From a virus, in IMG/VR virus record IMGVR_UViG_3300029915_000005: a stretch of DNA of 64,000 bases; one strand, written 5' to 3'. Shown one piece after another: positions 1 through 37,690 of this stretch; the first letter of the stretch is position 1; each line of letters opens with the position of its first letter. Position numbers and translations under genes: made by a program. Below the pieces are notes generated by a model that had not been told where the DNA came from, did no database searches, and was given only the letters and a program-made list of their open reading frames with translations.

Positions 1-20
1 AAATCGTAGGAGAAGAAAGA

Positions 21-908
21 ATGCTACTCCGAGAGTTTGATTTGGATATGTCAAAACTAAGTTCAGGAGATGTTAAAGAAATCAATGCTAATGTTGAATC
101 TTTATCTCTATGGATAAAAGATCATTGTTCAGAATTTTTGAAAATGAAAGGAGCAAATGATCTCGTTCGAGGTGTTAGAGAAAACTCACCAAGTATTTTT
201 ATGGGATATCCAAGAAAAAATAGAAGAAGTATTGAAGGAGAAATATCTACTGAGCTTACTAAAATAGTAGACAAATATATGCAAATGACTGGTTTTACTG
301 CTCTTCGAGGAAATAGTTTATTTTGTAATAGTGATCCTGAAATGGCTGAACCATGGGGTGAATTATATGTCATATTCCCTATAAATGGATTTACTTTTGC
401 GTATAGTAAACGACATACTTGTTGTTCAGGGGCAAGTTATATATTTCCAACAGAAGCTATTGACGAAAATTTACGCACATATGTAGACCAAATTTCTGAT
501 TTTTGGAATCGTAAAAAATACGATGTCCATGGATATTCAGAAAATATAAAAAAATTTTTAAAATATTGGTATACTCTTAATGAGTTTTATTCCAAAAAAG
601 TAAATTATTTTAATATTACTACAGTAATAAGAAATATTATTAAGACGTACAATTCTTTTACTAACGACGAAAAGGTTATGTTATCTGGTTCAGTAGTTGA
701 TCGTGCAATTATTGATCTTGGAAGAGAATTGAAACAGTTAGGAACAGATGAAATAATTGCTAAAAAATTCATAGTAAACAATAAATTGACCAATAAAAAT
801 TTGAAATGGGCTTTAGAAAATAGCTATGATGTGTGGATTCACGGAGCATATATTGCCATTGACAGAGAATTATATATACATAATTTTGATTTATTTGAAA
901 AACTATAA
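21..908 (+). CDS. ADP-ribosyltransferase-like protein (paralog family, 5 members in window)
   Basis: LVRG...GFTALRGNSLFCNS...WGELYVIFPINGF...DVWIHGAYIAI aligns with ORFs at 54076, 54701, 55400; R/S/acidic layout resembles R-S-E ARTs; N-terminus MLLREF. Confidence 0.5.
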   Translation: MLLREFDLDMSKLSSGDVKEINANVESLSLWIKDHCSEFLKMKGANDLVRGVRENSPSIFMGYPRKNRRSIEGEISTELTKIVDKYMQMTGFTALRGNSLFCNSDPEMAEPWGELYVIFPINGFTFAYSKRHTCCSGASYIFPTEAIDENLRTYVDQISDFWNRKKYDVHGYSENIKKFLKYWYTLNEFYSKKVNYFNITTVIRNIIKTYNSFTNDEKVMLSGSVVDRAIIDLGRELKQLGTDEIIAKKFIVNNKLTNKNLKWALENSYDVWIHGAYIAIDRELYIHNFDLFEKL

Positions 909-911
909 ATA
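904..911 (+). promoter_or_regulatory. T4-type late promoter TATAAATA
   Basis: Exact T4 gp55 late consensus 30 nt upstream of ATG 942. TAAATA cores also precede late genes at 19837, 29891, 32761, 37117, 39046, 41593, 42389, 45220, 48152, 49178, 54065, 60367 (+) and 7847, 29878, 52840, 54048 (-). Confidence 0.7.
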
Positions 912-941
912 CTAAAGAGAATAAATTATTGGAGTAACTAT

Positions 942-3900
942 ATGAAAAAGAAATCATTATTGGGATCAACAAAACCATACAGAAATCCAAAGTGGCTTGG
1001 CCCACAAGATAAAGTTGACAATCTTGGCCCAATTCTTGGAGCAAAACCAAAAAAATCAAAAGTTTTGAGCACAAAATTCATGGGATGCAGCAAAAATATG
1101 ACTAATAAAAATATCATTGCGGAAAATAATAAATATTCATCAAATGAAAAAGCACAACTGGCTGCTGTTCGACGAGATGGTTATGCAATTGAATGGATTG
1201 ACAATCCAAGCGAAGCTGTGCAAATGGCTGCTGTTAAACAAAATGGTTATGCAATTGGATACATCAGCAAGCCAAGCGAAGCTGTGCAAATGGCTGCTAT
1301 TCAACGAAATTATCGTGCAATTGAATACATCGACAAACCAAGCGAAGCTGTGCAAATGGCTGCTGTTCGACAAGATGGTTGGGCAATTGAATACATCGAC
1401 AATCCAAGCGAAGCTGTGCAACTTGCTGCTGTTCAACAAAATGGTCGTGCAATTCAATTCATAAAAAAGCCAACAATTAATGTCAAATTAATGGCTAAAT
1501 CAAAAGTTTTGAGCACGAAATTTCAAGGTTGTTCCATAGATCGCTCCAATAGCAATATTATTTCTGAATATAAAGATGATTATAATCCATCCAATGAAGA
1601 ATGGCTTAAAAATGAAATTGATTACGCCTATGAAATTTTTAATAATGAGGAATTTCCAAGAGTGGACAGAGAAGAAGCTCATCGAAGAATAAAGCTTTTA
1701 AATGCTGAAGCAAAAAAGAAAGGATATATTGATAAGTGGAATAAAGAAGCGCAAGAAGAAGCAGAAAAGACTCATATTAAACCAGAACTTTTAGATGTTC
1801 TTGATGATGTACGAGGCTATATTCATCACGGGAAAACTATAAACAAAGCTGATAGTAATATGTTACATAGTATGGGAATTAGTGAAGCTGTAAACAAATA
1901 TCCAATTTCTGCCAGAATAAATCCAAGATCATTAAAAAAATTATCTTTGTTGGGGCCAGAAGATAAACTTGGATTTGGAGCAGGATTAATAACAATCACT
2001 AATAAAGTATATATTGCAGCATGGCATTCAGAAATTCGTGCAAAACGTGGTTATGATATTTGTAGATTAAGTGAAGGAGCAATTAGAATTAGACAGGGTG
2101 GTTGGGATTGCGGAGATAATACAATAATTGAGTTTGGAAAATATGATGATGACACAATTTATAGACTTAAACAAATAATTCCATATGTTACTTCTCCAAC
2201 AAATAAATTTAAATTAGAGTGTGATGCTCGTGGAATAAATAATGATCATTTATATGTGACTGGAAATAAAGAATATATTATGGCAGAATTGGAAGAATGG
2301 TTAACTCCAAGACAAAAAGTTCCACTTCCAGGAAGTGTTATGGCATTTCATATGCAAGAATCAAAAGAAACTCCAAAATTAACATATAGAGAGTTTGCAA
2401 ACGCAAGCAAAGCAAAGAATAAGAAGTGCCCAACTTGTGAAAGCGAATTTAAGAATGTTCACTCAGCGAATCAAAAATATTGTTCCTCGGATTGTGAAGT
2501 GAAAGGAGAGACAGTTAAAAAATTACAAGAAGCGTTTGATAAATCAATAATAAGAAAAGCTGGATTTATTCCTTATTATTTTGATAACTTTGGAAAACTC
2601 AGAATGATGTTTGTTATGAGCAGTGATCCAACTTATGGCGGAAGCAAGTGGATGATAGCTAAAGGGCATATCGATGGAAAAGAAACAGATTTACAAGCTG
2701 CTTTACGAGAAGGAAACGAAGAGTGTGGGGTTAAGCAGTCAAATATTAAATTTATTAAACTTGGGTGGAAAGGTTTAATAAAAGGTTACACAGAATCTTC
2801 TGAAATGACAATTTATATTGGAGAAGTTAAAGACCCAGTTGATTTTGATAAACCAGGTAACGAAATAAAAGCTGTTAAATGGATAACTCCAGAAGAATTT
2901 AATTCGATTGGAAGAAATAGTCAAAAATTTATTGTTGAAGCATGTGTAAACAAAATTGGAGATAAAATGCGATTTTCTGAAATAAAAGAATCAAGAAAAT
3001 TTACAGTTTATAAAGATGGTGGTTTTTATGGCCCAAAATATGAATATGGATACATAGGAGTTCAAGACGAAGATGGGCATGATATGACTTATATTGGAAA
3101 GAAAAGTGTTCCCAATATGAATATACAGCAAGCAATATCAGCCCTTAAACAACAATTTCCAGGATGTGAAGTGAAAATTAAACTATCAAAAATATCTGAA
3201 GGTATGCTCAATGGACTAACTGTTATGTCTCTCGATCAATTTTTGGATGGCGAAAATCCAGAAGAAACTGAATTGGAAGACGAGATGTTGGGAGAAGCTG
3301 GAGAATTTGGTCTTGGTTCTAAATATCGAAACGCAAGTCATAAAGAAATGCAGGATTATCTTGATAGAACAGTATTCAAGAAGAAAAATAAACTTGATCC
3401 ATACACTATGCCATATATTCACCCAAGCAATGTAAAAAAGAATGCAGATGGTTCAGTTCCTATTATTGATGAAAATGGCGATAAGTATGATCTTGATGCT
3501 TTAAGAGATGCTATTACTAAAAGACCTAGTGGCTTACTTAAACAGAATGAGAAGATGAAACACAGTAATGGTACTGCCACAGTTTATTATAATGTTGGTT
3601 TGCCAGCATTAAAAGGATTGTCAGTTAATGAAGAAACAGGAGAATTTGTAGTTGTTGATACTTGCCCTGGTGCAGGTATTTGCAAAAATTATTGTTTCGC
3701 AATGAAAGGAAGCTATATTATGTTTCCTGGAGTTAGCATGAAGTCTGCGCAAACATTAAATTATTTATTGAATGATCCAGAAGGATTTAAAGCAGAATTA
3801 ATTGGTGAAATTTCAAAAGCAATCGCTAAATGGGATAATTTTACAGATAAAGATTTTAATAAAGGAGATGTTGAAGTTTCAATAAGGTGGCATGATTCAG

Positions 3901-4403
3901 GAGACTTCTTCAGTCCTGAATATATGGATATGGCTTGGGATGTTGCTAGAGAATTCCCAAATAATTTGTTTTATGCTTACACCAAAATAGCTGATGTTGC
4001 AAATTCAGAGGACAAGCCAGATAATTTTGTAATTAATTTTAGTGCTGGTGCATCTTCAACGCAAAGCAATTTAGTTAATATAAGTGCAGTTAAACATAGC
4101 CAAGTAGTGCCCAAAGATTTATTCTATGATTTAATTGCACGCAAAGGTATTAAGCTTATTAAAAATGCAGCAGGAGCCACACAATTTAGAGGTCCAGAAG
4201 AATGGAATGAATTAAAAGATAGATTGGCTGAAAAATATGATATAGATGTTGATACTATTTTAAGTTATGATGAATTTGTGGAAAAGAAGATGAATAAAAC
4301 GCTCGGCACTAAACCAAAATGGAATGTTACAGTTCTTCCTGGAGAAGGAGACGTTTCAGCAACAGATCCTACAGTAAAAGGTACATACTTAATGTTTCAC
4401 TAA
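942..4403 (+). CDS. Mosaic multidomain protein / putative polyprotein: DUF4116-like repeats, Cys4 zinc finger, NUDIX hydrolase, C-terminal GP88-like domain
   Basis: 5 x 22-aa NPSEAVQ(L/M)AAV repeats; CPTC..YCSSDC; Nudix box GHIDGKETDLQAALREGNEECG; TCPGAGICKNYCFA..RWHDSGDF..FYAYTK. Confidence 0.75.
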   Translation: MKKKSLLGSTKPYRNPKWLGPQDKVDNLGPILGAKPKKSKVLSTKFMGCSKNMTNKNIIAENNKYSSNEKAQLAAVRRDGYAIEWIDNPSEAVQMAAVKQNGYAIGYISKPSEAVQMAAIQRNYRAIEYIDKPSEAVQMAAVRQDGWAIEYIDNPSEAVQLAAVQQNGRAIQFIKKPTINVKLMAKSKVLSTKFQGCSIDRSNSNIISEYKDDYNPSNEEWLKNEIDYAYEIFNNEEFPRVDREEAHRRIKLLNAEAKKKGYIDKWNKEAQEEAEKTHIKPELLDVLDDVRGYIHHGKTINKADSNMLHSMGISEAVNKYPISARINPRSLKKLSLLGPEDKLGFGAGLITITNKVYIAAWHSEIRAKRGYDICRLSEGAIRIRQGGWDCGDNTIIEFGKYDDDTIYRLKQIIPYVTSPTNKFKLECDARGINNDHLYVTGNKEYIMAELEEWLTPRQKVPLPGSVMAFHMQESKETPKLTYREFANASKAKNKKCPTCESEFKNVHSANQKYCSSDCEVKGETVKKLQEAFDKSIIRKAGFIPYYFDNFGKLRMMFVMSSDPTYGGSKWMIAKGHIDGKETDLQAALREGNEECGVKQSNIKFIKLGWKGLIKGYTESSEMTIYIGEVKDPVDFDKPGNEIKAVKWITPEEFNSIGRNSQKFIVEACVNKIGDKMRFSEIKESRKFTVYKDGGFYGPKYEYGYIGVQDEDGHDMTYIGKKSVPNMNIQQAISALKQQFPGCEVKIKLSKISEGMLNGLTVMSLDQFLDGENPEETELEDEMLGEAGEFGLGSKYRNASHKEMQDYLDRTVFKKKNKLDPYTMPYIHPSNVKKNADGSVPIIDENGDKYDLDALRDAITKRPSGLLKQNEKMKHSNGTATVYYNVGLPALKGLSVNEETGEFVVVDTCPGAGICKNYCFAMKGSYIMFPGVSMKSAQTLNYLLNDPEGFKAELIGEISKAIAKWDNFTDKDFNKGDVEVSIRWHDSGDFFSPEYMDMAWDVAREFPNNLFYAYTKIADVANSEDKPDNFVINFSAGASSTQSNLVNISAVKHSQVVPKDLFYDLIARKGIKLIKNAAGATQFRGPEEWNELKDRLAEKYDIDVDTILSYDEFVEKKMNKTLGTKPKWNVTVLPGEGDVSATDPTVKGTYLMFH

Positions 4404-4411
4404 GGAAAAAT

Positions 4412-5025
4412 ATGAGACTAGATGAATATTCAAAACCAAGAGTTCCTGTAAAAGTTTTTAAAGTAGTTGATGATGAAGTTCGTACTTCATCATCTTCATT
4501 GAATATGGACCAAAAATTAGAAAAACTTGGTTGGGAATTTTTTAACGGAGGGTCTTTTGCAGCAGTATATACAAATCCTAAAAAACCATATATTCTAAAA
4601 ATCAATAAACAACCGGATAAAGCTTATGCTTATTATGTGTCAATAATAAGAAAATTGCATAATAAACATTTTCCAAAAATAAGTGATTTGAAATTTATAG
4701 AAGTTAATGGTGGTCGATATTACATATATCTTATTGAGAAATTACATAAGGCAAAATATGGAGTAGCAATAGCTAGTAGACTAGATTTTATTATGAATAA
4801 TTATGAAATTCCTCTGAAAAAATAGAGCAAGATTATTATAGATTATATGATACAAAAGCAGGATTTGAATATTTTGAAAAACATCTTGATTTATTTAAAG
4901 CTGCACAAATTATTGGAAAAAATAAAGAAACAAGTAATGTGCCAGGATTATTTTTTGATATGCATTCTGGAAATATTATGCAGAGAAAAGACGGAACAAT
5001 TGTTATAACTGATCCATACTTCTAA
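4412..5025 (+). pseudogene. Small Ser/Thr kinase-like protein, split by a 1-nt frameshift at A6 run 4817-4822
   Basis: Start MRLDEY after AAGGA. GGSFAAVY / YILK in frame 1; DMHSGNIMQRKDGTIVITDPYF* in the shifted frame. Could be a sequencing error. Confidence 0.75.
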
Positions 5026-5033
5026 GGATAACT

Positions 5034-5624
5034 ATGAATTTAAATGAATTATACAAACCGAAAATATCTAAAGATATTGATAATGAAATAAATTATCATT
5101 TCAATTATGGCGCTGGAAATACTCAGCAACTAAGAAATCGTCTTAAAAAATTTGGATGGATATATTTAGATGAAGGAGTTTATAGTTCAGTTTGGGGAAA
5201 TGTTAAAAAATCTTATATTCTTAAAATAAATAAAGTTCCTGATAGAGCATTCGATCATTATGTTAATATAATTAAGAAAAGTAAAAATCCTCATTTTCCA
5301 AAAATAAGTGATATGAGAGAAATAGCTATTGGACCTAAAATTTATTGTGCTTATTTAATTGAAAAATTATTTAAAATTCCTGGCCATTTTGTTGGTGATA
5401 ATTACTCAACTTTTTTCAATACAATTATTAATGCGGATCCAAAATATTCAATTTCTAAACTGTTTAATAACCATATTCCTACCATATTTAAAAAACAACC
5501 AAAACTAGTTGATGCATTATGCATAGTTGGTTCTGAACACAATAACTATTTTATTGATATGCATTCTGGAAATATTATGCAAAGAAAAGATGGAACAATT
5601 GTTATAACTGATCCTTATGCATAA
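5034..5624 (+). CDS. Small Ser/Thr kinase-like protein
   Basis: EGVYSSVW glycine loop, YILK, DMHSGNIM catalytic loop, ITDP. Confidence 0.8.
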   Translation: MNLNELYKPKISKDIDNEINYHFNYGAGNTQQLRNRLKKFGWIYLDEGVYSSVWGNVKKSYILKINKVPDRAFDHYVNIIKKSKNPHFPKISDMREIAIGPKIYCAYLIEKLFKIPGHFVGDNYSTFFNTIINADPKYSISKLFNNHIPTIFKKQPKLVDALCIVGSEHNNYFIDMHSGNIMQRKDGTIVITDPYA

Positions 5625-5648
5625 TTTTTATTAACTCTTTAATATCTT

Positions 5649-5705
5649 TTAACTTTCCATATAATAATCGATATCAATTTTTGGTTCTATTTCGTTTATT
5701 CTCAT
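5649..5705 (-). CDS. 18-aa tagged remnant MRINEIEPKIDIDYYMES
   Basis: Read by hand; N-terminus resembles kinase MNLNELYKPKISKDID. Confidence 0.35.
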   Translation of the reverse strand: MRINEIEPKIDIDYYMES

Positions 5706-5835
5706 TATTCCACCACAATGAATGATCACTCGTGTCTGGTTTACCAATGTACTCTAAATTTATTTCAACTTCTCCAGACGGTCTTTCTGGATATTCTCTA
5801 ATGAGATTCCATTTTGGAATTTCATCGATTTTCAT
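5674..5835 (-). CDS. 53-aa hypothetical protein MKIDEIPKWNLIRE...
   Basis: Read by hand; GGAG upstream; first 17 nt identical to the start of the 5822-6628 gene. Confidence 0.5.
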   Translation of the reverse strand: MKIDEIPKWNLIREYPERPSGEVEINLEYIGKPDTSDHSLWWNNENKRNRTKN

Positions 5836-6628
5836 TTCTTATTTTCTCCAGCCAATCCAGATAATTCATCATAGGATTTCGTATATACCATGCCAATGTT
5901 TTATAATCTCTAAATTTCGTTTTAAATAAATCCTCTTTCAAGCTTGGAAATGTATTGTTCACTTCTATATTCATTCCTGGAATTTTATGCTTTCTATAAT
6001 ACACCAATTCTTTGGCAGCTTTTCCAACATATTTTTTAAGAAAAGTTCCAATATTAATTAAATAATATTCATCACAATCAAAAATTAATTCATTTTTAGT
6101 AAAATTCTTGGGAAGTCCTTCTCTATATGTAGATGCCATAGATGCTGGAATTCTTCTATCATCTGTCATATGCCCCATATTTCCTGTAATTATCATTCCA
6201 TATTTGTCTGCATCTTCTCCAGCGACAGTATTACCACCAATATCAACCACTACTGGACTCCAAACAACTTTATAATTCTCTGTAGGAACAAAAATTCTAG
6301 CTTGGCCATGAAACAAATATAATTCGCTTGGAGTGATCATAGTACAAAAAGTTGGATTTTTTATGTCCAATTTTTTCATTATATCTGTAAGAGAACTTGC
6401 AAACATTCCTTTTGCGTTATATTCAAAATTTTTATTTTCATGATTGGTAACTTTGATAATAGGAGTTTCTGGTGTTGTAGCATTAAATGCTCTATATATT
6501 AAAGGATAATTTCCCATTCTATCGCAAAAACCTGCAACAATATTTGCACGGGCTCTAATATGCTGAATTTCAGCAGCATGTATAACAGCTTCTTCTAATT
6601 TCTCTTTTGTTATTTCATCGATTTTCAT
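5822..6628 (-). CDS. Divergent ADP-ribosyltransferase-like paralog
   Basis: LIYRA...PTFCT...FHGQARIFVP...NELIF..YYLI matches the family pattern; N-terminus MKIDEI..LEEA. Confidence 0.45.
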   Translation of the reverse strand: MKIDEITKEKLEEAVIHAAEIQHIRARANIVAGFCDRMGNYPLIYRAFNATTPETPIIKVTNHENKNFEYNAKGMFASSLTDIMKKLDIKNPTFCTMITPSELYLFHGQARIFVPTENYKVVWSPVVVDIGGNTVAGEDADKYGMIITGNMGHMTDDRRIPASMASTYREGLPKNFTKNELIFDCDEYYLINIGTFLKKYVGKAAKELVYYRKHKIPGMNIEVNNTFPSLKEDLFKTKFRDYKTLAWYIRNPMMNYLDWLEKIRNENR

Positions 6629-6640
6629 TATATTTTCCCA

Positions 6641-7231
6641 TCAGCTTGCATAAGGATCAGTTATAACAATTGTTCCGTCTTTTCTCTGCATAATATTGCC
6701 GCCATGCATGTCATTGGAAATATATGGATTTTTGATATTGTGTTTAAATTTTCCAATAATTCTGAGTGCTGTAACTAATTCTGGATTTTGTTTTAAATAA
6801 TCAAGTTGCGTATGAGATGTATTAAAAAATGTTAGTGATGAATATGGACAATCTATTATTTCACTAAAAACATTAGCTAAATGTTTCATTTCAGAACGTA
6901 CATCATCTAATTTCTCAATAAGATATATGTAATATCGACCACCATTAACTTCTATAAATTTCAAATCACTTATTTTTGGAAAATGTTTATTGTTATATTT
7001 CTTTATTAAAGATACATATTGTGCATACGCAGTATCTTGTCTATCATTAACTTTTAACACATAAGATTTTTTTGGATTTGAATATACTGTACTATAATAA
7101 CCAGCCCCTAGAAGAGTCCAACCCAATTTTTTTAATTTGCCTTCTATGGTATATTTATCAGTACTGCGATCAAACACAATTTTAGAAAATTTGGCTGGTA
7201 TTCTCGTTTTTGAATATTCGTCTAGTTTCAT
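6641..7231 (-). CDS. Small Ser/Thr kinase-like protein
   Basis: Start MKLDEY (7231); GAGYYSTVY, YVLK, DMHGGNIM, ITDP. Confidence 0.8.
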   Translation of the reverse strand: MKLDEYSKTRIPAKFSKIVFDRSTDKYTIEGKLKKLGWTLLGAGYYSTVYSNPKKSYVLKVNDRQDTAYAQYVSLIKKYNNKHFPKISDLKFIEVNGGRYYIYLIEKLDDVRSEMKHLANVFSEIIDCPYSSLTFFNTSHTQLDYLKQNPELVTALRIIGKFKHNIKNPYISNDMHGGNIMQRKDGTIVITDPYAS

Positions 7232-7841
7232 TATAACCCCCAATGTATGGATCAGTTATTACAATTGTTCCATCTTTTCTTTGCATAAAATTTTCGTCAT
7301 GCAAATCAATCCTAAAAAATGGTTTAGATTCATAGCTAACTATACGCAATGCTTTAATTAATTTTGGTTGTTTTTTGAATATTTCAGGAATTGCTCCATA
7401 CTCTTCAATTAGTGATTCTAAAGGTTTTTCTTCCATATTAAGATTAATTACAAAATTGAACATAGATGCATAATCTTCAGCAGTAGCTCTATTTGGAAAT
7501 TCCTCTAATTTTTCAATTAAATATGCATAATAACTTCTTCCTGTAATAAATATTTGTCTTCTATCACTAATTTTTGGAAAATGTGGATTTCTACTTCCTT
7601 TAATAACAGAAACATAATGATCAAATCCAGGATCTGGTATTTTATTTATTTTAAGGATATATGATTTTTTGGGATTACTCCAAACCGAACTATAAACACC
7701 GGATCCTTCCAATTTCCAACCAAATTTTTCAAGTTGATTTTTTAAATATGGAATATTAAGAGGATTATTGAAAAGATGATTCGTTATAGCATAAGTTGCG
7801 CTCTTAGATATTTTCGGTTTGTAGAATTCATTTATAAGCAT
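7182..7841 (-). CDS. Small Ser/Thr kinase-like protein
   Basis: Start MLINEFY 5 nt after TAAATA; GSGVYSSVW, DLHDENFM, ITDP. Confidence 0.8.
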   Translation of the reverse strand: MLINEFYKPKISKSATYAITNHLFNNPLNIPYLKNQLEKFGWKLEGSGVYSSVWSNPKKSYILKINKIPDPGFDHYVSVIKGSRNPHFPKISDRRQIFITGRSYYAYLIEKLEEFPNRATAEDYASMFNFVINLNMEEKPLESLIEEYGAIPEIFKKQPKLIKALRIVSYESKPFFRIDLHDENFMQRKDGTIVITDPYIGGYNETRRIFKNENTSQIF

Positions 7842-7924
7842 ATAAGTATTTATTGCTTTAATAAATATTATTGCTATTAAACACGACTCATGATACAATT
7901 AATTATAAACAAAGGAGCATTAAT

Positions 7925-8185
7925 ATGGCATTGACACAAGCATTAGGACCAGCAGAAATTCAAAGATTGAAAGATTTGGTATATGAAGGAGTTAAAGTAA
8001 AAGAGGAAGTGGAATCATTAAATGAAGGCATGAATGAAACAGTTAAAGCCATTTCAGAGGAACTTCAGATTCCAGCGAAGCTGTTAAAGACTGCTATTAC
8101 AGTGGCTCATAAAGGTAATTTTAAAGATCACGAAGAAGATTTAAAAGATTTGGAAGCTATTCTTACAGCTATTGGACGCAAATAA
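7925..8185 (+). CDS. DsbA/GapR-like small DNA-binding protein
   Basis: AGGAG RBS; helical EEVESLNEGMNETVKAISEELQIPAKLL pattern; position before polymerase. Confidence 0.55.
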   Translation: MALTQALGPAEIQRLKDLVYEGVKVKEEVESLNEGMNETVKAISEELQIPAKLLKTAITVAHKGNFKDHEEDLKDLEAILTAIGRK

Positions 8186-19880: not shown

Positions 19881-20361
19881 TGATTTTTATAAAATAATGG
19901 AAGCAGCAGAAAAAAAGAAAGGAACATACTCTTCTTTCCAGTTGAATAGTGAAAGTAGAAAAAAATTGCATGATTGGTTGGAAACCAATAAAATAGAAAA
20001 TTTGGTCGATCTAGATGAATATCATGTTACAGTTACTTATTCTCGAAAAGCTGTTCCAGAAATTTATGATATAAAACCAAAATTGCCAATAAAAGTAAAA
20101 GCTATTGGTTGGGAAGTTTTTGGTGATTTGTTGGTGCTAAAATTGGAAAAAGATAAATTAATTGGAATTTATTCCCAATCTATAGAATTAGGAGCAGAAT
20201 CAGATTATGATGAATATATTCCTCATGTTTCTGTGGCCAAAAAATATACAGGAGAAGTTCCAAAGACATATCCAAAATTTTATATTACGTTGAATGAATT
20301 TAAAGTTGAAGAATTAGATTTTGATTTTAGTTATTCATTTTCAGAGGATGAAAAAGAATAA
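19867..20361 (+). CDS. 2H phosphoesterase, Acb1/gp57B-like
   Basis: YHVTVTYSR and YIPHVSVA (two HxT/S motifs), GAESDYDEY. Confidence 0.75.
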   Translation: MKSFSDFYKIMEAAEKKKGTYSSFQLNSESRKKLHDWLETNKIENLVDLDEYHVTVTYSRKAVPEIYDIKPKLPIKVKAIGWEVFGDLLVLKLEKDKLIGIYSQSIELGAESDYDEYIPHVSVAKKYTGEVPKTYPKFYITLNEFKVEELDFDFSYSFSEDEKE

Positions 20362-21005
20362 TGGAAGATTGGAAATCAACCCCGATTTATATAACTAATT
20401 TTAATAATCTGGAAAGAGGATTTAGAAAATTGGTTAATTGGCTTTGGGACGCAGGTATGACAAATATTGCTGTGATTGATAATGCATCAACATGGGAACC
20501 ATTGCTTTGTTATTACAAAACATCAGGATTGAATATTATCAATAGAACTTCCAATCTTGGCCATGATGCATTTTGGAAACTTAATATAGTTCAAAATACA
20601 AGATTTATAGTAACTGATCCTGATGTTGTTCCAGATGCAAATTGTCCAGCAGATTTGGTAAGAAAAATGCACGAAGTTGCTGATAGATATGCTCCTGCAA
20701 AAGTTGGCCCTGGATTACGAATAGATAATCTTCCAGATCATTATCATAGAAAACAATTAATGTTGGACAGTGAAGTAAATTATTGGACTAGAAAAACTGC
20801 TGATAATGATTCTTACTTTGCTCTTATAGATACAACTTTTGCTTTATATAATCCAGGATGGGGAATTTGGCCATCAGCGACACACATAAGGCTTGATTTT
20901 CCATATGTTATGGAGCACTTGCCATGGTATGAAGATAGCAATGCAATTAATGAAGAACGAGATTTTTATAAAAGAACAGCATTGCCAGGAATTAGCAATG
21001 CATAA
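20361..21005 (+). CDS. GT-A glycosyltransferase-like protein
   Basis: VIDNAST, NLGH, VTDPDV, IDTTFALY. Confidence 0.7.
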   Translation: MEDWKSTPIYITNFNNLERGFRKLVNWLWDAGMTNIAVIDNASTWEPLLCYYKTSGLNIINRTSNLGHDAFWKLNIVQNTRFIVTDPDVVPDANCPADLVRKMHEVADRYAPAKVGPGLRIDNLPDHYHRKQLMLDSEVNYWTRKTADNDSYFALIDTTFALYNPGWGIWPSATHIRLDFPYVMEHLPWYEDSNAINEERDFYKRTALPGISNA

Positions 21006-21015
21006 CGGAGATTGA

Positions 21016-21510
21016 ATGAGAATCACTAAATTATTTAATTATACACAAACATCTGATCCATATGCAACACATATGAATATGTTATCTGCTATGGGAGATG
21101 ATGTAAAGAGTATTTTGGAGTTAGGCGCTGGCAGATATAGTACTGGAATGTTTTTGAATCGTGAATTATTTCCACTTTTGAAAAAATTGGTAACTGTTGA
21201 AAATGATCCAAATTGGGCTGCTGTTGCAAAAGTTGAAGATAGCAGACATACTATGATTGTAGTTCCAGAACCAATAGAAACATTTTTGGATTCTTTGGAT
21301 TTAGAATTGTTTGATCTAATTTTTGTAGATAATTCTACTTCTGGTGATCGTAGATGTGATACTATAAAATATATCTCAGAAAAAGTTAAGCAGCCATTAG
21401 TAGTAATGCACGATTTTCAAGTTCCTTCTTATGCGGCTGCTGCGAAAGCATTTAAGCATATCATTGTAGACAATCGACAAGAACCATACACAGCTTTGGG
21501 ATGGAATTAG
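21016..21510 (+). CDS. SAM-dependent methyltransferase-like protein
   Basis: ILELGAGRYST, FDLIFVD, VVMHD. Confidence 0.7.
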   Translation: MRITKLFNYTQTSDPYATHMNMLSAMGDDVKSILELGAGRYSTGMFLNRELFPLLKKLVTVENDPNWAAVAKVEDSRHTMIVVPEPIETFLDSLDLELFDLIFVDNSTSGDRRCDTIKYISEKVKQPLVVMHDFQVPSYAAAAKAFKHIIVDNRQEPYTALGWN

Positions 21511-21519
21511 GAGGAAATA

Positions 21520-22041
21520 ATGCACAGATCAGCATTGATAAGTGGAAAAAAGTTTTTTGATAAGTACGTTCAATCAGGAACCATTGTTGAAATAGGAAGC
21601 CAAGAAGTGGTTCCAGCACAAGGATCGTTACGACAAGTGGCATCTCCAAATTGCAAATATATTGGTCTTGACTGTTCTGCTGGAATTGGCGTAGATATTG
21701 TCACAGATGATTCATATGTATTGCCATTGGAAAATAATTATGCAGATGTAGTAGTGTCGTCTTCAGCATTTGAGCATATGGAACTTTTTTGGGTTATGTT
21801 TTTAGAAATGGCAAGAGTAGTAAAAAGTGGTGGATATATTTATATCAATTCGCCGAGTAATGGTTATGTTCATCGGCATCCAGTGGATTGCTGGAGATTT
21901 TATCCAGATGCAGGAAATGCATTGACCAAATGGGCTGTTAGAAATGGTTATGATCTGGAATTAGTTGAAACATATATTGGTGCTCCAGATGAAGATATCG
22001 CTCATTGGGAAGATTGGGTAAGTATTTGGAAGAAGAAATAA
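21520..22041 (+). CDS. Class I SAM methyltransferase
   Basis: IVEIGS, YIGLD, DVVVSSSAFEH, RVVKSGG, HPVDCWRF. Confidence 0.85.
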   Translation: MHRSALISGKKFFDKYVQSGTIVEIGSQEVVPAQGSLRQVASPNCKYIGLDCSAGIGVDIVTDDSYVLPLENNYADVVVSSSAFEHMELFWVMFLEMARVVKSGGYIYINSPSNGYVHRHPVDCWRFYPDAGNALTKWAVRNGYDLELVETYIGAPDEDIAHWEDWVSIWKKK

Positions 22042-22080
22042 AATACCGCACAATTTGCGGTATTTTATTTCTTCTTCCAA
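22026..22080. terminator. Bidirectional terminator with 25-bp perfect arms
   Basis: TTGGAAGAAGAAATAAAATACCGCA-caatt-TGCGGTATTTTATTTCTTCTTCCAA between convergent genes. Confidence 0.8.
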
Positions 22081-22107
22081 TTTAGTATATGTAAATTGAT
22101 TTCTCTT

Positions 22108-22537
22108 TTAATACTTCACGAAAATTGTCCAATTCTTCTGTGCCATAGCATTCCCAAGAAACAGAAAATCACATCTATTTTGTGCATCCCAACTCCATCT
22201 ATCAGCAATATATTTTGTTTCTATCAACCCATATTTGTAGTAATTATAAGTGGGTCCATCATTTTTATCAATAATTTGAGATGAACGAATTGCTTTAATT
22301 ACATTGATCTTGTTAATCATTGGAACCGTCCAACGCAACGTTACATTTAAATTATCTCTGCAAAGAATACGCATCATTGCCATTCCTGATGCATCCCCTA
22401 GACATGCATCTATATTATTGAATAATTCTGACGCAAGATTGGGTCCATATGCATTTTTAAAACAGACCTCATTTTTAAACCAGATTCAACAATACAGTTA
22501 AGCTGGCTTTCGTCAATTCTGGATGATTTTCGCGCAT
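22108..22537 (-). pseudogene. Early protein with L7/L12-CTD-like motif, frameshifted near 22475
   Basis: Promoter TTGATT..TAATAT then ATG 22537; removing one T joins it to ORF 22108-22383, which contains NKINVIKAIRS..YGLIETKYIAD. Confidence 0.45.
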
Positions 22538-22579
22538 GTAAAAATATTATCAAACTTTGGAATAAAATCAACATAAATA

Positions 22580-22608
22580 TTGACAAATAAATTTATTTAG
22601 GATATTCT
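22580..22608 (+). promoter_or_regulatory. Sigma70 promoter, leaderless
   Basis: TTGACA-17-TATTCT, ATG 6 nt later; near-duplicate at 23408-23436. Confidence 0.7.
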
Positions 22609-22614
22609 TTATAT

Positions 22615-23382
22615 ATGAATGAAAAAGAACAACTAGCTGCTGTTCAACAAAATGGTTGGGCAATTGAATACATCAGAAATCCAAGCGAAGCTGTGCAACT
22701 GGCTGCTGTTCAACAAAATGGTTGTGCAATTTACCACATCAGCAAGCCAAGCGAAGCTGTGCAACTGGCTGCTGTTCAACAAAATGGTTGTGCAATTGAA
22801 TACATCAGAAATCCAAGCAAAGCTGTGCAACTAGCTGCTGTTCAACAAAATGGTTGGGCAATTGAATACATCAGAAATCCAAGCGAAGCTGTGCAACTAG
22901 CTGCTGTTCAACAAAATGGTTATGCAATTGAATACATCAGAAATCCAAGCGAAGCTGTGCAACTGGCTGCTGTTCAACAAAATGGTTATGCAATTCGAGG
23001 CATCAGCAAGCCAAGCGAAGCTGTGCAACTGGCTGCTGTTCAACGAAATGGTTGGGCAATTGAATACATCAGAAATCCAAGCGAAGCTGTGCAACTAGCT
23101 GCTGTTCAACAAAATGGTTGTGCAATTTACCACATCAGCAAGCCAAGCGAAGCTGTGCAACTGGCTGCTGTTCAACAAAATGGTTGTGCAATTAAATACA
23201 TCAGGAATCCAAGCGAAGCTGTGCAACTGGCTGCTGTTCAAGAAGATGGTTGGGCAATTTGCTACATCGACAAGCCAAGCGAAGCTGTGCAACTGGCTGC
23301 TATTCAACGAAATTATCAGGCAATTCAACACATAAAAAAGCCAACAATTAATGTCAAATTAATGGCTAAATTGCTGTCTTAA
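22615..23382 (+). CDS. DUF4116-like tandem-repeat protein (11 x 22 aa)
   Basis: 66-bp near-identical units AAVQQNGxAIxxIxxPSEAVQL. Confidence 0.8.
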   Translation: MNEKEQLAAVQQNGWAIEYIRNPSEAVQLAAVQQNGCAIYHISKPSEAVQLAAVQQNGCAIEYIRNPSKAVQLAAVQQNGWAIEYIRNPSEAVQLAAVQQNGYAIEYIRNPSEAVQLAAVQQNGYAIRGISKPSEAVQLAAVQRNGWAIEYIRNPSEAVQLAAVQQNGCAIYHISKPSEAVQLAAVQQNGCAIKYIRNPSEAVQLAAVQEDGWAICYIDKPSEAVQLAAIQRNYQAIQHIKKPTINVKLMAKLLS

Positions 23383-23442
23383 AATATTCAAAACAAAGCA
23401 CTTATTGTTAACAAATAAATTTATTTAGGATATTTTTTATAT

Positions 23443-23682
23443 ATGAATGAAAAAGCACAAATGGCTGCTGTTCAACAAAATGGTTATGCAATTGAATACA
23501 TCAGCAAGCCAAGCAAAGCTGTGCAAATGGCTGCTGTTCAACGAAATTATCGTGCAATTCAATACATCGACAAGCCAAGCAAAGCTGTGCAAATGGCTGC
23601 TGTTCAACAAAATGGTTGGGCAATTGAATATATAAAAAATCCAACAGAAACAGCAAAATTGGCATCAAAAAGAAACTCTTGA
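23443..23682 (+). CDS. DUF4116-like repeat protein (3 units)
   Basis: Same repeat; duplicated promoter and start. Confidence 0.75.
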   Translation: MNEKAQMAAVQQNGYAIEYISKPSKAVQMAAVQRNYRAIQYIDKPSKAVQMAAVQQNGWAIEYIKNPTETAKLASKRNS

Positions 23683-23877
23683 CAATCATCCCAAACTTTG
23701 TTATGCTATATTTGTAGTCGAAAGGACATGAAATGCGTAATCTTTACAACAGTGTTGGAGTCTGGTATTTGACAAACGTTTTTCCAACTGTTCTACAAAT
23801 CAGTCTATCCTTTTAAAATCAACAACTTAGCCTGTGGAAAAGAAAAGCTTGACAAACAACCCAAACATTGATACCAT
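23679..23877 (+). promoter_or_regulatory. Cluster of sigma70 early promoters with an IHF-consensus site
   Basis: TTGACA-17-TATGCT (23679), TTGACA (23769), TTGACA-17-TACCAT (23849); AATCAACAACTTA at 23817-23829. Confidence 0.65.
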
Positions 23878-23914
23878 TAAAGAGTAGCAAAAATACGAAA
23901 GGATAACACAAAAA

Positions 23915-25105
23915 ATGGCAAAGATTGACACAACTGCATCGTACACGCTGAATGAATTGGTTCCTCTGATCAAGCGATGCTTGAAGAAACAGCGCCCGCT
24001 TTTTCTGTGGTCTGGTCCTGGAATTGGCAAGTCGTCAGTTATAGCGCAAATTGCCAAGCTTCTTGGTGGAATTTCTATTGATCTTCGTTTGAGTCAGATG
24101 CAGCAATCTGATCTCATTGGTATTCCATATTTAAATCCAACTGCAAATAACGGTGCTGGCGCTATGCGCTGGGCGCCTGACGAGCGTATGCCGACTGCTG
24201 AATTTGCTGCTGAGTATCCAATTGTCATTTTGTTTTTGGACGAAATGAATAGTGCTGCTCCTGCTGTGCAAGCTTCTGCATATCAGTTGGTTCAAGACCG
24301 AGCTGCTGGAACGTATAAGCTTCCTGACAATGTGGTTATTGTCGCCGCTGGAAATCGTGAGACAGACCGCGGAGTAACTTTCCGTATGCCTTCTCCGCTT
24401 GCAAATCGTTTTGTTCACTTTCAAGTTAAGCCTGATTTTGATTCTTGGTTGGATTGGGCTTTGAGCGAAAATATCAATCCTGATGTTGTTGCTTTTTTGT
24501 CAACCTTCAAAGACAAGTTGTATGAGTTTGATCCTACGAGCGCTGATAAGTCTTTTCCGACTCCGCGTAGTTGGGAATTTGTAAGCCAGCTTATCACTAC
24601 TGATAAAGATGAAGCTTCTCTGTCAGATAGTGTAATTCGAGATTTGGTTGCATCTGCTGTTGGTTCTGGTACCGCTACATCGTTCATGGCGTATATGAAG
24701 ATTGGCAAGACTCTTCCACATCCTGCTGATATTCTGTCTGGTAAAGTGACAGAGATTAAGACAACTGAAATCAGCGCACATTATCAGATCATTATGAGCA
24801 TGTTGTACGAGTTGCGTAATTTTTGGTTTGATCACAGCGATGGGACTGGTGTTATGGAAAAGGTAGCAGATCGCCAAGTTGAAAAGCGTGATTGGCGCAC
24901 GGACAAGCCATATTTGAAGACTTGGGCTACAATGCTTGAGAATTTTAACAATTTTGTTCTTACGCAAGTGAAGACTGAAGTTGGAATTATGGCAGTTCGT
25001 ATGGCTTTCAAGAATTACAATTTCATGAAGTCTATGCCAATGACCAATTTGAAGTCTTGGACCAAGATCGCAGAGCAGTGGGGAAAGTTTATCTTCTCTG
25101 CTTAA
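23915..25105 (+). CDS. MoxR-like AAA+ ATPase
   Basis: GPGIGKS, LFLDEMN, AAGNR, PLANRF, PTPRSWE. Confidence 0.9.
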   Translation: MAKIDTTASYTLNELVPLIKRCLKKQRPLFLWSGPGIGKSSVIAQIAKLLGGISIDLRLSQMQQSDLIGIPYLNPTANNGAGAMRWAPDERMPTAEFAAEYPIVILFLDEMNSAAPAVQASAYQLVQDRAAGTYKLPDNVVIVAAGNRETDRGVTFRMPSPLANRFVHFQVKPDFDSWLDWALSENINPDVVAFLSTFKDKLYEFDPTSADKSFPTPRSWEFVSQLITTDKDEASLSDSVIRDLVASAVGSGTATSFMAYMKIGKTLPHPADILSGKVTEIKTTEISAHYQIIMSMLYELRNFWFDHSDGTGVMEKVADRQVEKRDWRTDKPYLKTWATMLENFNNFVLTQVKTEVGIMAVRMAFKNYNFMKSMPMTNLKSWTKIAEQWGKFIFSA

Positions 25106-25112
25106 TCAAACC

Positions 25113-25157
25113 AAAAACCAGAAATTTGACAGTCCAATAGTCAAATTTCTGGTTTTT
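25113..25157 (+). terminator. Intrinsic terminator
   Basis: AAAAACCAGAAATTTGAC-agtccaata-GTCAAATTTCTGGTTTTT. Confidence 0.75.
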
Positions 25158-25363
25158 AACTTGTTGATTCTAAAGGGACAAAATTGGCTAAATTGCCCTA
25201 TAACCCGCTCTAAGCCCCTCAGACATGTCCAAGTGCCATAAAGCAAATAATATTGCTTAAAAGGCATTTTTAAGCTCTTTGTTTTGTGTTTGTTACAAAT
25301 TGTTGATTGCAAAGCACTTATTTTCTTATTGACATTTAACTTGAAAGCGAGTAATATTTAACT

Positions 25364-26740
25364 ATGGCAAACACATTAAACAAGAATCAATCTCCAGAAA
25401 AGCTTGGTCGTATTACTGATCAACCAATTCCGCATGAGTTGGCAGTTCGTGTTGCAGACAAGATCACGCAGGCTCGGGTAAGTATGTTGTTCAATCAGCA
25501 ATTTTTTGGAACAATCGCAATGCGCATGGAACTAATGCCTGCTGATAAATGGTTGCCAACCATGGCAGTTGACGGCAAGTATATGTATTATAATCATAAT
25601 TTTGTTGATGAATTGTTTCAAGACGAGCTGATTTTTGTGGTATCTCATGAAGTTCTTCATTTGGTTTATGACCATTTGGGAAGAAATGAGTTTCGTGACC
25701 GTCAGCTTTACAATATTGCTGCTGATTATGTCGTGAATGATGAATTGATCTTGGCTAAAGTTGGAAAATTTCCAACTCATAAAATCCAGAAAAAGGACTC
25801 TTATGGTTCGATGCGAACAGTCGAAGAGCCAATTGGTTTGCATGATGTAAAATATCGTGACTGGAACAGCGAGAAAGTCTATGACGATCTTTTGCAACAG
25901 CAGGAGAAAAATGGCTCTGGCAAGGGTAAAAATTCTGATGGTAGTGGAACTATGAATGGTCAGGGTTTAAGCGAATTGCTTGATAAGTTGCTGGATGAGC
26001 ATATTTCTCCTGGTGCTGGAAAAGATGGAGAACCGTCAAAGTCTGATGGAAAAGCGAGTGCAGATGGTCCTGCGACATTTGGAGATGAAGAACGCAAGCA
26101 ATTGAAAGCAGAGTTGACGGACCAGATTGTAAATTTGGCCAAGTCTTGTAATCCTGGAAATTTGCCGTCTGGTGTTCAAAGAATTATTGAACAAATGACA
26201 GCACCAAAGATGGATTGGAGAGCATTATTGCAGTCCAATCTCGATAGCATTCTTCCTATTGACTATAACTATATGAAAATTAGTAGAAAGAGTACTCATC
26301 TCAATGTAATTCTTCCTGGGATTGTCAATGATCAGTTGCTGAATATCGCAGTTGCAATTGATATGTCAGGAAGTATTGGAGAGAAAGAAGCTGCTGAATT
26401 TTTGAGTGAAATCAATGGAATTATGGGACAATACCAATCCTATGAAATTTTGGTTTTTTGTTTTGATACCAAGTGTTATAATCAACAGATATATTCTTCA
26501 GATAATGGAGAAAATATTAATACATATGTTCCAATGGGCGGCGGTGGAACTGATGGTTCCTGCATTTTTGAGTATTTGAAAAATGAAGGAATTGAGCCAA
26601 TGAAACTTGTGGTTTTCACTGATGGTTATGTTGGAAACTGGGGCGATGAATTCTATTGTCCGACAATTTGGTGCATCAAGGGAAGTAAAGAAGTTCCTCC
26701 ATTTGGACAGGTAGCTTATTTGGATGATCAAATGAACTAA
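25364..26740 (+). CDS. Metallopeptidase plus VWA domain protein (DUF2201-like), MoxR partner
   Basis: TMAVDG, HEVLH, NIAADYVVN; DMSGS, GGGGTD, FTDG; preceded by TTGACA-17-TAATAT. Confidence 0.9.
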   Translation: MANTLNKNQSPEKLGRITDQPIPHELAVRVADKITQARVSMLFNQQFFGTIAMRMELMPADKWLPTMAVDGKYMYYNHNFVDELFQDELIFVVSHEVLHLVYDHLGRNEFRDRQLYNIAADYVVNDELILAKVGKFPTHKIQKKDSYGSMRTVEEPIGLHDVKYRDWNSEKVYDDLLQQQEKNGSGKGKNSDGSGTMNGQGLSELLDKLLDEHISPGAGKDGEPSKSDGKASADGPATFGDEERKQLKAELTDQIVNLAKSCNPGNLPSGVQRIIEQMTAPKMDWRALLQSNLDSILPIDYNYMKISRKSTHLNVILPGIVNDQLLNIAVAIDMSGSIGEKEAAEFLSEINGIMGQYQSYEILVFCFDTKCYNQQIYSSDNGENINTYVPMGGGGTDGSCIFEYLKNEGIEPMKLVVFTDGYVGNWGDEFYCPTIWCIKGSKEVPPFGQVAYLDDQMN

Positions 26741-26758
26741 TTTTTGAAATATTGAATT

Positions 26759-26803
26759 AGAAATAAAAAATCCACTCTAAATTAGAGTGGATTTTTTATT
26801 TCT
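26759..26803. terminator. Palindromic bidirectional terminator (22-bp arms)
   Basis: AGAAATAAAAAATCCACTCTAA-A-TTAGAGTGGATTTTTTATTTCT. Confidence 0.75.
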
Positions 26804-27105
26804 TGGTTGTGTAATAAGGCAGAAAACATTTTAGCTTTAATTTTTCCTTCAAACATTTTGGTAAGTAGATGATGGCAAATAAAATGTTCTTTGGCAGTAA
26901 GAAAAACTTGATTTTCTTTTATTTTGGGATGTACTAATCCGAAAGATTTTGGAATTATGTGATGAGACTCGATATAGCCAAGTGTGGATTTGACAATTTT
27001 TTTATTTGTTCCACGAAAAATTGCTTTAGAACAAATATTGATATAAATTTTAGTATATTTGTTAAATATAGCAATATTTTGAATTTGAGATATATAAATA
27101 GACAT
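26782..27105 (-). CDS. HNH endonuclease, probably C-terminally truncated
   Basis: ESHHIIPKS..NQVFLTAKEHFICHHLL; ends inside the terminator. Confidence 0.75.
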   Translation of the reverse strand: MSIYISQIQNIAIFNKYTKIYINICSKAIFRGTNKKIVKSTLGYIESHHIIPKSFGLVHPKIKENQVFLTAKEHFICHHLLTKMFEGKIKAKMFSALLHNQEIKNPL

Positions 27106-27171
27106 ATGCTGGTGTCCTATGAGACATTAGAATTGGTGGGTGATCTTAACACCGCGACCAATAATATTTAT
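27094..27171 (-). ncRNA. Structured leader element, copy B
   Basis: ATAAATA-tt-ATTGGT-CGC-GGTG(ttaagat)CACC-C-ACCAAT-TCTAA-TGTC(tcatag)GACA-CCAGC-at-ATG-tc-TATTTAT. Confidence 0.7.
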
Positions 27172-27254
27172 CTTGACAAAATATAATTTATGCTCTAATA
27201 TTAAAGATATACAAGTTTAGAAAAGATAAATAAACACAGGAGAAACAAAACAAT

Positions 27255-27863
27255 ATGAGCAATAATATTTGCAAGCACGTTGGATTACATAATGCCAAGA
27301 AAATTTTAATTTTATGGAATAAAGTTCCTGGAGAATCTCATATGGCATTGGTTCTATTCGCTGATAAGATTCCCGCAGCATATTCTGAATTGGTTCATAA
27401 AACATTGGTAAGTGAAGCTGGGCAAAAAGCAAAAAATTTCGCAGATGCATTGAATGAAGTAAAGTTGCCTGACGGAAGAAATTTACTTAATGCTTTGCAC
27501 ACTGAATCGCATATTAAAAAAGTTCAAACGAATCAGACATTTGTTACACCTGACTCAATTAACAAGATTAAGTTAAATGAACTCAATGATATGATGGATA
27601 AAATTGAAGAAGGCGGGGATGCTAAGAAAAAATTAGAAGATTTAGATTTATATAAAGGAATGAATAAAAGAAAACGACGAAATGGGCTGTCAACCACTCC
27701 CAGTGATTTAGATATTTCTGATAAAAAGATGGTGGTAGCCTTGCAAGAGCAAGTCAAGCAATTGACTGGTGCTGTAGAAGCATTACTTGTTGAAGTTAGA
27801 CAATTGAAAGGGGACAGATCAGAACCTGCTTCAGTTGCTCCCAAAACACGAAAAATAATTTAA
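27255..27863 (+). CDS. Hypothetical phage protein
   Basis: AGGAG RBS; KHVG.H..K. Confidence 0.65.
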   Translation: MSNNICKHVGLHNAKKILILWNKVPGESHMALVLFADKIPAAYSELVHKTLVSEAGQKAKNFADALNEVKLPDGRNLLNALHTESHIKKVQTNQTFVTPDSINKIKLNELNDMMDKIEEGGDAKKKLEDLDLYKGMNKRKRRNGLSTTPSDLDISDKKMVVALQEQVKQLTGAVEALLVEVRQLKGDRSEPASVAPKTRKII

Positions 27864-27873
27864 GCACAAATTA

Positions 27874-27903
27874 AAAAAGCCCAGCAAATTTGCTGGGCTT
27901 TTT
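27874..27903. terminator. Bidirectional terminator
   Basis: AAAAAGCCCAGCAAATTTGCTGGGCTTTTT palindrome. Confidence 0.8.
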
Positions 27904-27905
27904 AT

Positions 27906-29862: not shown

Positions 29863-29926
29863 TGTAAACCTCTGAAGTATTTATGTGAGCTAAATACATA
29901 AGAATATAATTTTTTAATGGTGATAA

Positions 29927-32763: not shown

Positions 32764-32771
32764 ATATTGGA

Positions 32772-33935: not shown

Positions 33936-33937
33936 TT

Positions 33938-37138: not shown

Positions 37139-37690
37139 ATGAATTTAACTGAAGAAATGACAAAATATAAAAATGTTATTAATGAGGATATCTTTGATTC
37201 TGTTAATGATTTTTTTAGTCCGATAACTAATATTATTCAACCACAAACAGTTACGATGATTTACAAAAAAGATGGCAAGTATTATGAAAAATCTTTGCAT
37301 ATCAAAACTGGTATTCGCTTAGAAAGACTTAAAAATTGGTGCGACGATTATCTTGAAGGGTTTGGAGCAACTCCAGTTAGATTGACTGCTGAAAATGGAG
37401 CTTTTTTGGCCGGCAATAATAAGCTTCCTCCTCCAGAATTAATCAATATTGAAGAAAGTTTCGAAAGTGTGCGAGATGAAAAAGATGAACATTTTTATGG
37501 AAAAGAAAATGATGATAAAAATTTAAATAATGCTTTAAATGCCCCAATTAAGAAAAATAAATCTTATAAAGAAGGATATGAGGCTGCATTGGGTGAATTT
37601 TGGAATGAATATAGAAATATAATTGACAATTTAATCAAAAGGGATGAAGTAAAATCAATTTTATATAAATTGCTAGATAAAAACAAGTAA
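37139..37690 (+). CDS. Tagged hypothetical protein (putative internal head protein)
   Basis: MNLTEEMTKYKNVINE; module shared with 38276. Confidence 0.6.
   Translation: MNLTEEMTKYKNVINEDIFDSVNDFFSPITNIIQPQTVTMIYKKDGKYYEKSLHIKTGIRLERLKNWCDDYLEGFGATPVRLTAENGAFLAGNNKLPPPELINIEESFESVRDEKDEHFYGKENDDKNLNNALNAPIKKNKSYKEGYEAALGEFWNEYRNIIDNLIKRDEVKSILYKLLDKNK

Follow-up and report, generated by a model that had tools for sequence, protein, structure and literature searches.

Probable in-frame capture of a DUF4116 gene by a putative late cargo polyprotein in a jumbo T4-like phage known from uncultured material

Inside the prohead of phage T4, the internal proteins and Alt are trimmed of their N-terminal targeting peptides by the gp21 protease (PMC9958956). 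Polyvalent proteins combine many unrelated effector modules in one phage polypeptide and are predicted to be packaged and injected (Iyer et al., 2017; PMC5512222). In T4-type phages, promoter-early-stem-loop (PeSL) cassettes have been described together with mini-circles, with reported circle sizes of 400–800 bp (Arbiol et al., 2010; PMC2839356; PMC4122927). The present analysis concerns a locus which, as judged from its sequence, shares the logic of T4 cargo carrying a capsid-targeting sequence (CTS), of polyvalent proteins and of PeSL cassettes, and fails at least one defining feature of each. This is an open reading frame (ORF) of 1153 amino acids (aa), P0001, in a 64,000-nt stretch of viral DNA (IMG/VR record IMGVR_UViG_3300029915_000005; the whole stretch is hereafter called the window). 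Close to its N-terminus, P0001 carries a module of the DUF4116 family between two related linkers.

P0001 is probably a late cargo polyprotein in which a DUF4116 gene was captured in frame behind a 61-aa leader, with probable protease sites bracketing the captured piece. The capture of the module into the ORF is well supported by the sequence comparisons because the relatives of the ORF have a single linker and no cassette, one of them (P0085) is collinear with it, and free-standing DUF4116 genes are the norm. The features of the locus are the following:

904–911, + strand: T4-type late-promoter-like box TATAAATA, 31 nt upstream of the ATG at 942
942–4403, + strand: multi-module late ORF P0001 (1153 aa) in the order leader (residues 1–61), spacer NNKYSS, DUF4116 module, linker 2 (L2, residues 186–209), X1, X2, Cys4 zinc (Zn) ribbon, NUDIX, X3 and GP88 (PF17338)
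942–1124, + strand: conserved 61-aa leader ending in NIIAE (E61), the last 24 aa of which are linker L1 (1053–1124)
1053–1072, + strand: copy 1 of the 20-bp direct repeat AAATCAAAAGTTTTGAGCAC, the codons of KSKVLS plus AC, containing the 13-bp near-palindrome TCAAAAGTTTTGA
1125–1142, + strand: six-codon spacer NNKYSS from the putative L1 cleavage motif to the cassette, identical in homolog P0084
1143–1496, + strand: DUF4116 cassette with cap NEKAQ, five 22-aa units and the native tail TINVKLMA(K), corresponding to codon 2 to codon −4 of a free-standing family member
1460–1500, + strand: 41-nt tract identical (41/41) to 23331–23371 in the tail of gene 22615–23382, and also exact in tails of other phages
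1497–1516, + strand: copy 2 of the 20-bp direct repeat AAATCAAAAGTTTTGAGCAC
1497–1568, + strand: linker L2, a partial second leader copy (last 24 aa only) ending in NIISE (E209)
1569–2480, + strand: X1, X2 and the start of the Zn ribbon, collinear with P0085 (43% identity, 92% coverage)

At its 5′ end, the cassette starts at 1143 with AATGAAAAAGCACAA, the 15 nt following the ATG of gene 23443, and is separated from repeat copy 1 by 70 nt (1073–1142). Five 66-nt units, each unique in sequence, and the non-repeat tail of the family make up a module of 118 aa. At the 3′ end, the final 4 nt of the 41-nt tract (AAAT) overlap repeat copy 2. The tail of all free-standing copies continues as TGCTGTCTTAA (LLS, stop). 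Since the family tail (..GCTAAAT, then TGCTGTCTTAA) and the leader (..AAAAAAT, then CAAAAG..) have AAAT in common in the same frame, the 3′ join is read as a microhomology join. The 15-nt and 41-bp identities, the placement of the two repeat copies and the in-frame copying of a nearly whole gene had been proposed in a first-pass annotation of the window, and all of them hold; the copied part includes the cap and tail of the family. Against Pfam DUF4116 (PF13475, gathering cut-off 24.9 bits), P0001 scores 43.1 bits, and the two free-standing genes of the window score 108 bits (gene 1) and 42.9 bits (gene 2). The module is predicted to fold independently as a paired-helix alpha-solenoid. AlphaFold2 supplied with an 11-sequence alignment returned five helix-pair units and a capping helix with pLDDT (predicted local distance difference test) values of 71–85, the flanking linker residues being below 50; a single-sequence run on residues 1–353 gave a mean pLDDT of 45.

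Relatives of the leader and of X1/X2 were gathered by an exhaustive profile-free search and two word-based searches. Among 68 GP88 homologs, DUF4116 was found in P0001 and in none of the other 67, so that the fusion is derived in P0001. The first-pass annotation had expected homologs without the cassette to have one linker, and a single KSK[VI]LS.KF.GCS linker was indeed found in all five such leader relatives (P0085, P0080, P0079, P0083 and P0077). P0085 has the full leader and one linker (..KFQGCSVD..NVISE), followed directly by X1, X2, NUDIX and X3, and is collinear with the window ORF from L2 on. In P0080 and P0083, leader and linker are followed directly by the Zn ribbon and NUDIX, and in P0079 a different module stands between the linker and this pair. 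In P0077, a Cys-rich finger module separates the one full linker from a degenerate partial one (KF..SI..NIISE), which X1 follows, while the more distant P0071, P0078, P0076 and the L081 ORF share the same ~55-aa element with other modules after it. The cassette is absent from all leader relatives except P0084, a variant of P0001's own start. This 145-aa protein (leader, L1, three units and a native stop) shows 100% identity to P0001 over the leader, L1 and units 1–2, departs from it inside a repeat unit, ends at the family's native C-terminus ..VAKLLS and lies on a contig of 3.7 kb. The leader has no Pfam or PHROGs family match and no tblastn match in 50,697 phage records. Metagenome scans with P0077 and with the leader, as well as IMG/VR protein-based scans with X1/X2 and with P0085, returned no match, and the distant L081 was the only match in a leader alignment scan of IMG/VR.

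Both repeat copies open a 24-codon linker of the form KSKVLSTKF-x-GCS...N-I-I-x-E. Their spacing is 444 nt, exactly 148 codons, and deletion of this span in silico leaves an open 1005-aa frame with one linker. Within the window, AAATCAAAAGTTTTGAGCAC occurs in these two copies only, even when up to 3 mismatches are allowed (0.07 expected). All six repeat codons are identical between L1 and L2 (P = 0.0026 under independent choice with phage codon usage), whereas beyond the repeat the same codon is used at 5 of 11 same-amino-acid positions, against 6.1 expected by chance. The chance-level codon match outside the repeat combined with sharp identity within it points to a recombination joint rather than a fresh local duplication, and L1 and L2 are accordingly best read as old, diverged homologous linkers, with the 20-bp repeat as the joint. 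Thus, of the duplicated linker described earlier, the two copies stand, and a fresh duplication does not. The same codon statistics rejected mere conservation of coding sequence as an explanation of the repeat. L2 is nearest to the single linker of P0085 and P0077, and the N-terminus with L1 is nearest to P0080 and P0079.

Two free-standing members of the family are present in the window:

22580–23382, + strand: DUF4116 gene 1 with 11 units (22615–23382) and a sigma70-like promoter TTGACA-17-TATTCT (22580–22608)
23408–23682, + strand: DUF4116 gene 2 with 3 units (23443–23682) and the same promoter cassette, TTAACA-17-TATTTT

Related phage contigs contain many free-standing DUF4116 genes, with at least 8 loci on a single contig of 127 kb. 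Essentially one promoter block (TTGACA, 17 nt, TATTCT, ATG 6 nt on) recurs in most of the genes examined, and most also have a cap M[ND]EK.Q and a tail IKKPTINVKL[MV]AKLLS-stop. When window positions 20000–36000 were compared with related phages, only the DUF4116 genes and their promoter blocks reached 87–94% DNA identity (22579–23645 and 25154–25343 against IMG/VR 3300028854_000008, 3300029915_000079 and 3300029915_000038), whereas the other matches, including the portal gene, were few, short and about 69–74% identical. Because of this contrast, the family appears to behave as a circulating pool of mobile cassettes, which suggests that promoter and gene move together between phages. The sigma70-like −10 box ends 6 nt before the ATG in three genes (22580–22617, 23408–23445 and 25328–25366), whose mRNAs may be leaderless, and the block AAAGCACTTATTTTCTTATTGACA at 25311–25334 is the same as that upstream of DUF4116 genes in other phages.

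The cassette of P0001 is 85–87% identical to the local genes (85.5% in the best register of gene 1 and 85–94% per unit). In comparison, copies on the contigs of other phages match it at 88–90% and the window genes at 87%, and the exact runs shared with foreign copies reach 52–56 nt. Synonymous difference between the cassette and free-standing units is 0.07–0.11, the same as within the family, while non-synonymous difference is higher (0.13–0.18). Such a non-synonymous excess is also seen in other repeat families under diversifying pressure. The 41-bp identity was considered as a mark of a local donor and rejected, as tail identity is family-wide. On these comparisons, the cassette would derive from the circulating pool and is not traceable to one donor. 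The first-pass annotation had placed the donor 21 kb away and called the capture recent. Neither claim survives: the 41-bp tail is exact at that place, but the cassette as a whole is no closer to the local genes than to foreign copies.

In the proposed sequence of events, a member of the multi-copy, promoter-bearing DUF4116 family would have been captured directly behind the conserved leader, losing only its start codon at the 5′ end and its last three codons and stop at the 3′ end. The gain over cassette-free homologs would amount to 444 nt (148 codons) bounded by the perfect 20-bp direct repeat, with the 3′ join made through the 4-nt microhomology AAAT between gene tail and linker. An old diverged linker copy, either brought along or kept, would leave the module bracketed by two [IV]-[IV]-[AS]-E motifs. 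As for the route, the 444-nt piece (remainder of L1, spacer and cassette) may have entered at the repeat through two crossovers, the first homologous and the other illegitimate, or as a small circle that integrated there, an event with a precedent in T4-type phages (PMC2839356). A gp21-type prohead protease would cut after E61 and E209 and free residues 62–209 inside the head as a 148-aa helical-repeat protein with short flexible ends. A protein otherwise made after infection from its own sigma70-type and probably early promoter would thereby also be delivered ready-made with the DNA. The window encodes a suitable candidate enzyme:

40094–40744, + strand: head maturation protease of the T4 gp21 family, presumed to act on the linker sites (phrog_207, E 1e-53; ORF 40049/40094–40744)

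The end of the leader is hydrophobic-hydrophobic-[ASG]-E in 12 of 12 examples, with the adjacent residues variable. Three genes of the head cluster (37139–37190, 38276–38327 and 41621–41672) share the N-terminus MNL[TI]EE..KY[KR]..[VI][IV].E, ending KN[VI][IV]xE, which is a candidate capsid-targeting tag with a terminal protease site. ORF 37932 begins with MKIFEI, resembling the MKIFEV start of many GP88 polyproteins.

As in the case of the T4 internal proteins IPI–III and Alt (PMC9958956, citing Mullaney and Black, 1996), P0001 appears to be a late gene whose N-terminal peptide ends in hydrophobic-x-Glu. A gp21-family protease is likewise encoded in its head gene cluster, and it has cargo of a host-modifying type, namely NUDIX. 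ATAAATA-type boxes are likewise found 10–30 nt before the head, scaffold, major capsid protein and sheath-cluster genes. Both IIAE at E61 and IISE at E209 fit [LIV]-x-E, and the motif is kept at the leader end in all relatives; the terminal ..IIAE is presumably the only part of the leader that resembles the end of the T4 tag. Unlike the 10-aa T4 tag, the P0001 leader is 61 aa long, and several cargo modules with predicted internal sites are joined in one chain.

With polyvalent proteins the locus has in common that module content varies among relatives: P0001 combines DUF4116, a Zn ribbon, NUDIX, GP88 and three unassigned modules, which places it within the range of 2–15 distinct effector-type domains in a virion or late context by which such proteins are recognized. 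Searches of P0001 against Pfam and PHROGs matched only DUF4116, NUDIX and GP88, leaving X1, X2 and X3 without assignment. In contrast to polyvalent proteins, these searches revealed no peptidase, ParB-like or MuF-type domains, and processing would depend on the head protease at coded joints and not on a peptidase domain of its own. Iyer et al. (2017; PMC5512222) make no mention of DUF4116. The resemblance to PeSL cassettes consists in the repeated sigma70-like promoter block directly upstream of the free-standing genes, in the 87–94% DNA identity of these genes between phages whose core genes are ~70% identical, as expected of shuffled cassettes, and in a 444-nt gain that is bounded by direct repeats and lies within the size of the 400–800-bp circles. 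It differs in that the capture joined coding to coding sequence in frame and the promoter cassette was not used. On the + strand between 22300 and 24000, no terminator-like site was called. Finally, the module shares 22-aa helical repeats, framework residues and multi-copy occurrence in large phages with Pfam DUF4116 (PF13475) and PHROGs 5925, 17056, 25923 and 35305, but it resides inside a late polyprotein instead of standing alone.

The remainder of the ORF also has a modular history among its relatives. In the nearest GP88 relatives (63–66% identity), GP88 is a stand-alone 410-aa gene with a separate NUDIX gene nearby, whereas other GP88 homologs are long chains of modules joined by repeated GVAEG motifs, which implies that adding modules to GP88 is common in the group. 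Five homologs from other metagenomes (P0003, P0008, P0009, P0012 and P0013) are chains of 800–1050 aa with repeated GVAEG-type motifs between unrelated modules ahead of GP88 and constitute a widespread polyprotein family whose cutting signal appears to be fixed. For GP88, no informative solved-structure relative was found, the only matches being remote ones in actinophage records. Within P0001, an internal MRFSEIKE at 2967–2990, preceded by GGAGATAAA, coincides with the end of homolog P0079 after its NUDIX domain and is consistent with a formerly separate tagged gene that is now part of an in-frame fusion.

Several points weigh against a cleaved and packaged cargo polyprotein. Linker cleavage and packaging in heads are deduced from motifs, [LIV]-x-E motifs are common by chance in an AT-rich proteome, and the leader bears no sequence relationship to the T4 targeting peptide of 10 aa. 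A window-wide enrichment of the TATAAATA motif was rejected (14 found against 12 expected). The probable early expression of the free-standing genes is deduced only from matches to the sigma70-like consensus, and P0084 may be an intermediate that had not yet fused, a variant in its own right or a short contig of chimeric origin. The ORF could instead encode an uncut multidomain fusion, in which the DUF4116 solenoid would be an N-terminal binding domain for NUDIX and GP88 and the linkers would be flexible spacers. Such an arrangement, which we consider rather unlikely, would agree with the short and common nature of the [LIV]-x-E motif from which cleavage is predicted, and with a leader lacking a match to known targeting sequences. 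However, every relative retains hydrophobic-hydrophobic-[ASG]-E at the leader end while the residues next to it vary, and the same motif closes the conserved N-termini of the three head-cluster genes. In addition, the modules are separate genes or differently ordered in relatives, and GP88 homologs elsewhere chain modules with repeated GVAEG joints. The opposite direction of transfer, with the module ancestral in the polyprotein and the free-standing genes excised from it, is hardly credible. Nothing specific speaks for it beyond the symmetry of sequence similarity as such. The numerous free-standing copies in several phages have a common promoter, cap and tail, the module occurs in no relative of the ORF except the 100%-identical variant of its own start, and what is missing from the cassette is precisely the start codon and the codons close to the stop.

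The way in which the module arrived is subject to further alternatives. A leader-tagged DUF4116 gene similar to P0084 could have been joined to a downstream leader gene by a deletion from AAAT in its tail to AAAT at codon 38 of the leader, so that L2 would be the stump of the second leader; the product would be the same as that of an insertion. This two-gene fusion is possible, if somewhat unlikely. It would explain why P0084, identical to P0001 through the leader, L1 and units 1–2, ends at the native ..VAKLLS, why L2 comprises only the C-terminal 24 aa of a leader of P0085/P0077 type behind an N-terminus and L1 of P0080/P0079 type, and why the junction has the AAAT microhomology. Yet P0084 diverges inside a repeat unit, where shared k-mers ease chimeric assembly, on a contig of only 3.7 kb; the homolog searches found no separate downstream gene from a close strain; and a fusion does not itself account for the identical 16 nt after AAAT beside saturated next codons. 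A repeat-induced chimera that placed a DUF4116 gene into the ORF during assembly is very unlikely, even though near-identical copies of the family are numerous and share exact runs of 40–56 nt, and P0084 displays an alternative path in another assembly. The 5′ junction shares no more than 15 nt with any other copy and the 3′ overlap is only 4 nt, both too short for a k-mer join. All five units of the cassette are unique, the frame is kept at both junctions, and the identical 1153-aa protein is present on 6 contigs from two sources (JGI/IMG and ENA).

An extension of the capture reading, which we regard as improbable, is that the position behind the leader is a dedicated cargo slot, where the linker DNA (the 20-bp repeat with TCAAAAGTTTTGA) docks cassettes, perhaps as small circles, in frame. 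The position holds DUF4116 in P0001, the Cys-rich finger in P0077 and the unassigned module in P0079; P0085, P0080 and P0083 carry no cargo there. A docked cassette would gain a cleavage site on each side, and recombination between the repeat copies could remove it again.

By gene content, the window belongs to a T4-like myovirus, with DNA polymerase, tail sheath, portal, head protease, a scaffold-like protein and the major capsid protein. Because the last is 67–71% identical to those of the group of GAP32, CBB and Vibrio 2.275.O (350-kb phages), we assign the window, on capsid protein sequence, to an uncultured jumbo T4-like phage of the GAP32/Rak2 type. A blastn search of window positions 1–8000 against INPHARED (50,697 phage records) gave no DNA match, nor did the exact 20-mer of the direct repeat in IMG/VR, and therefore neither set contains close-strain DNA. 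The head module is rich in selfish nucleases. The portal gene (33938–37099, 1053 aa) has a central insertion (residues ~462–569) that matches HNH endonuclease families, with portal-like sequence on either side, and looks like an intein with a homing endonuclease. Homing-endonuclease genes are located at 40744–41595, where they separate the protease from the head gene that follows, and at 32772–33935, directly before the portal gene.

The packing of host-modifying proteins into phage heads is known, while the recruitment of new cargo has mostly been guessed. In the preferred reading, that of an in-frame capture behind the leader, the locus would be a legible record of one recruitment, in which the donor family, both junctions, the microhomology, the joint and the cassette-free homologs can be read, and a clear example, from sequence only, of the way in which cargo may be added to the head-loaded proteins of phages. 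It suggests a rule by which an insert with a protease-site leader before it and a second site behind it would be released separately as a passenger. If the rule is true, the 61-aa leader family in uncultured jumbo T4-like phages would mark an entire set of injected proteins, and a product that is normally synthesized after infection from a promoter of its own could be turned into one that is pre-made and injected.

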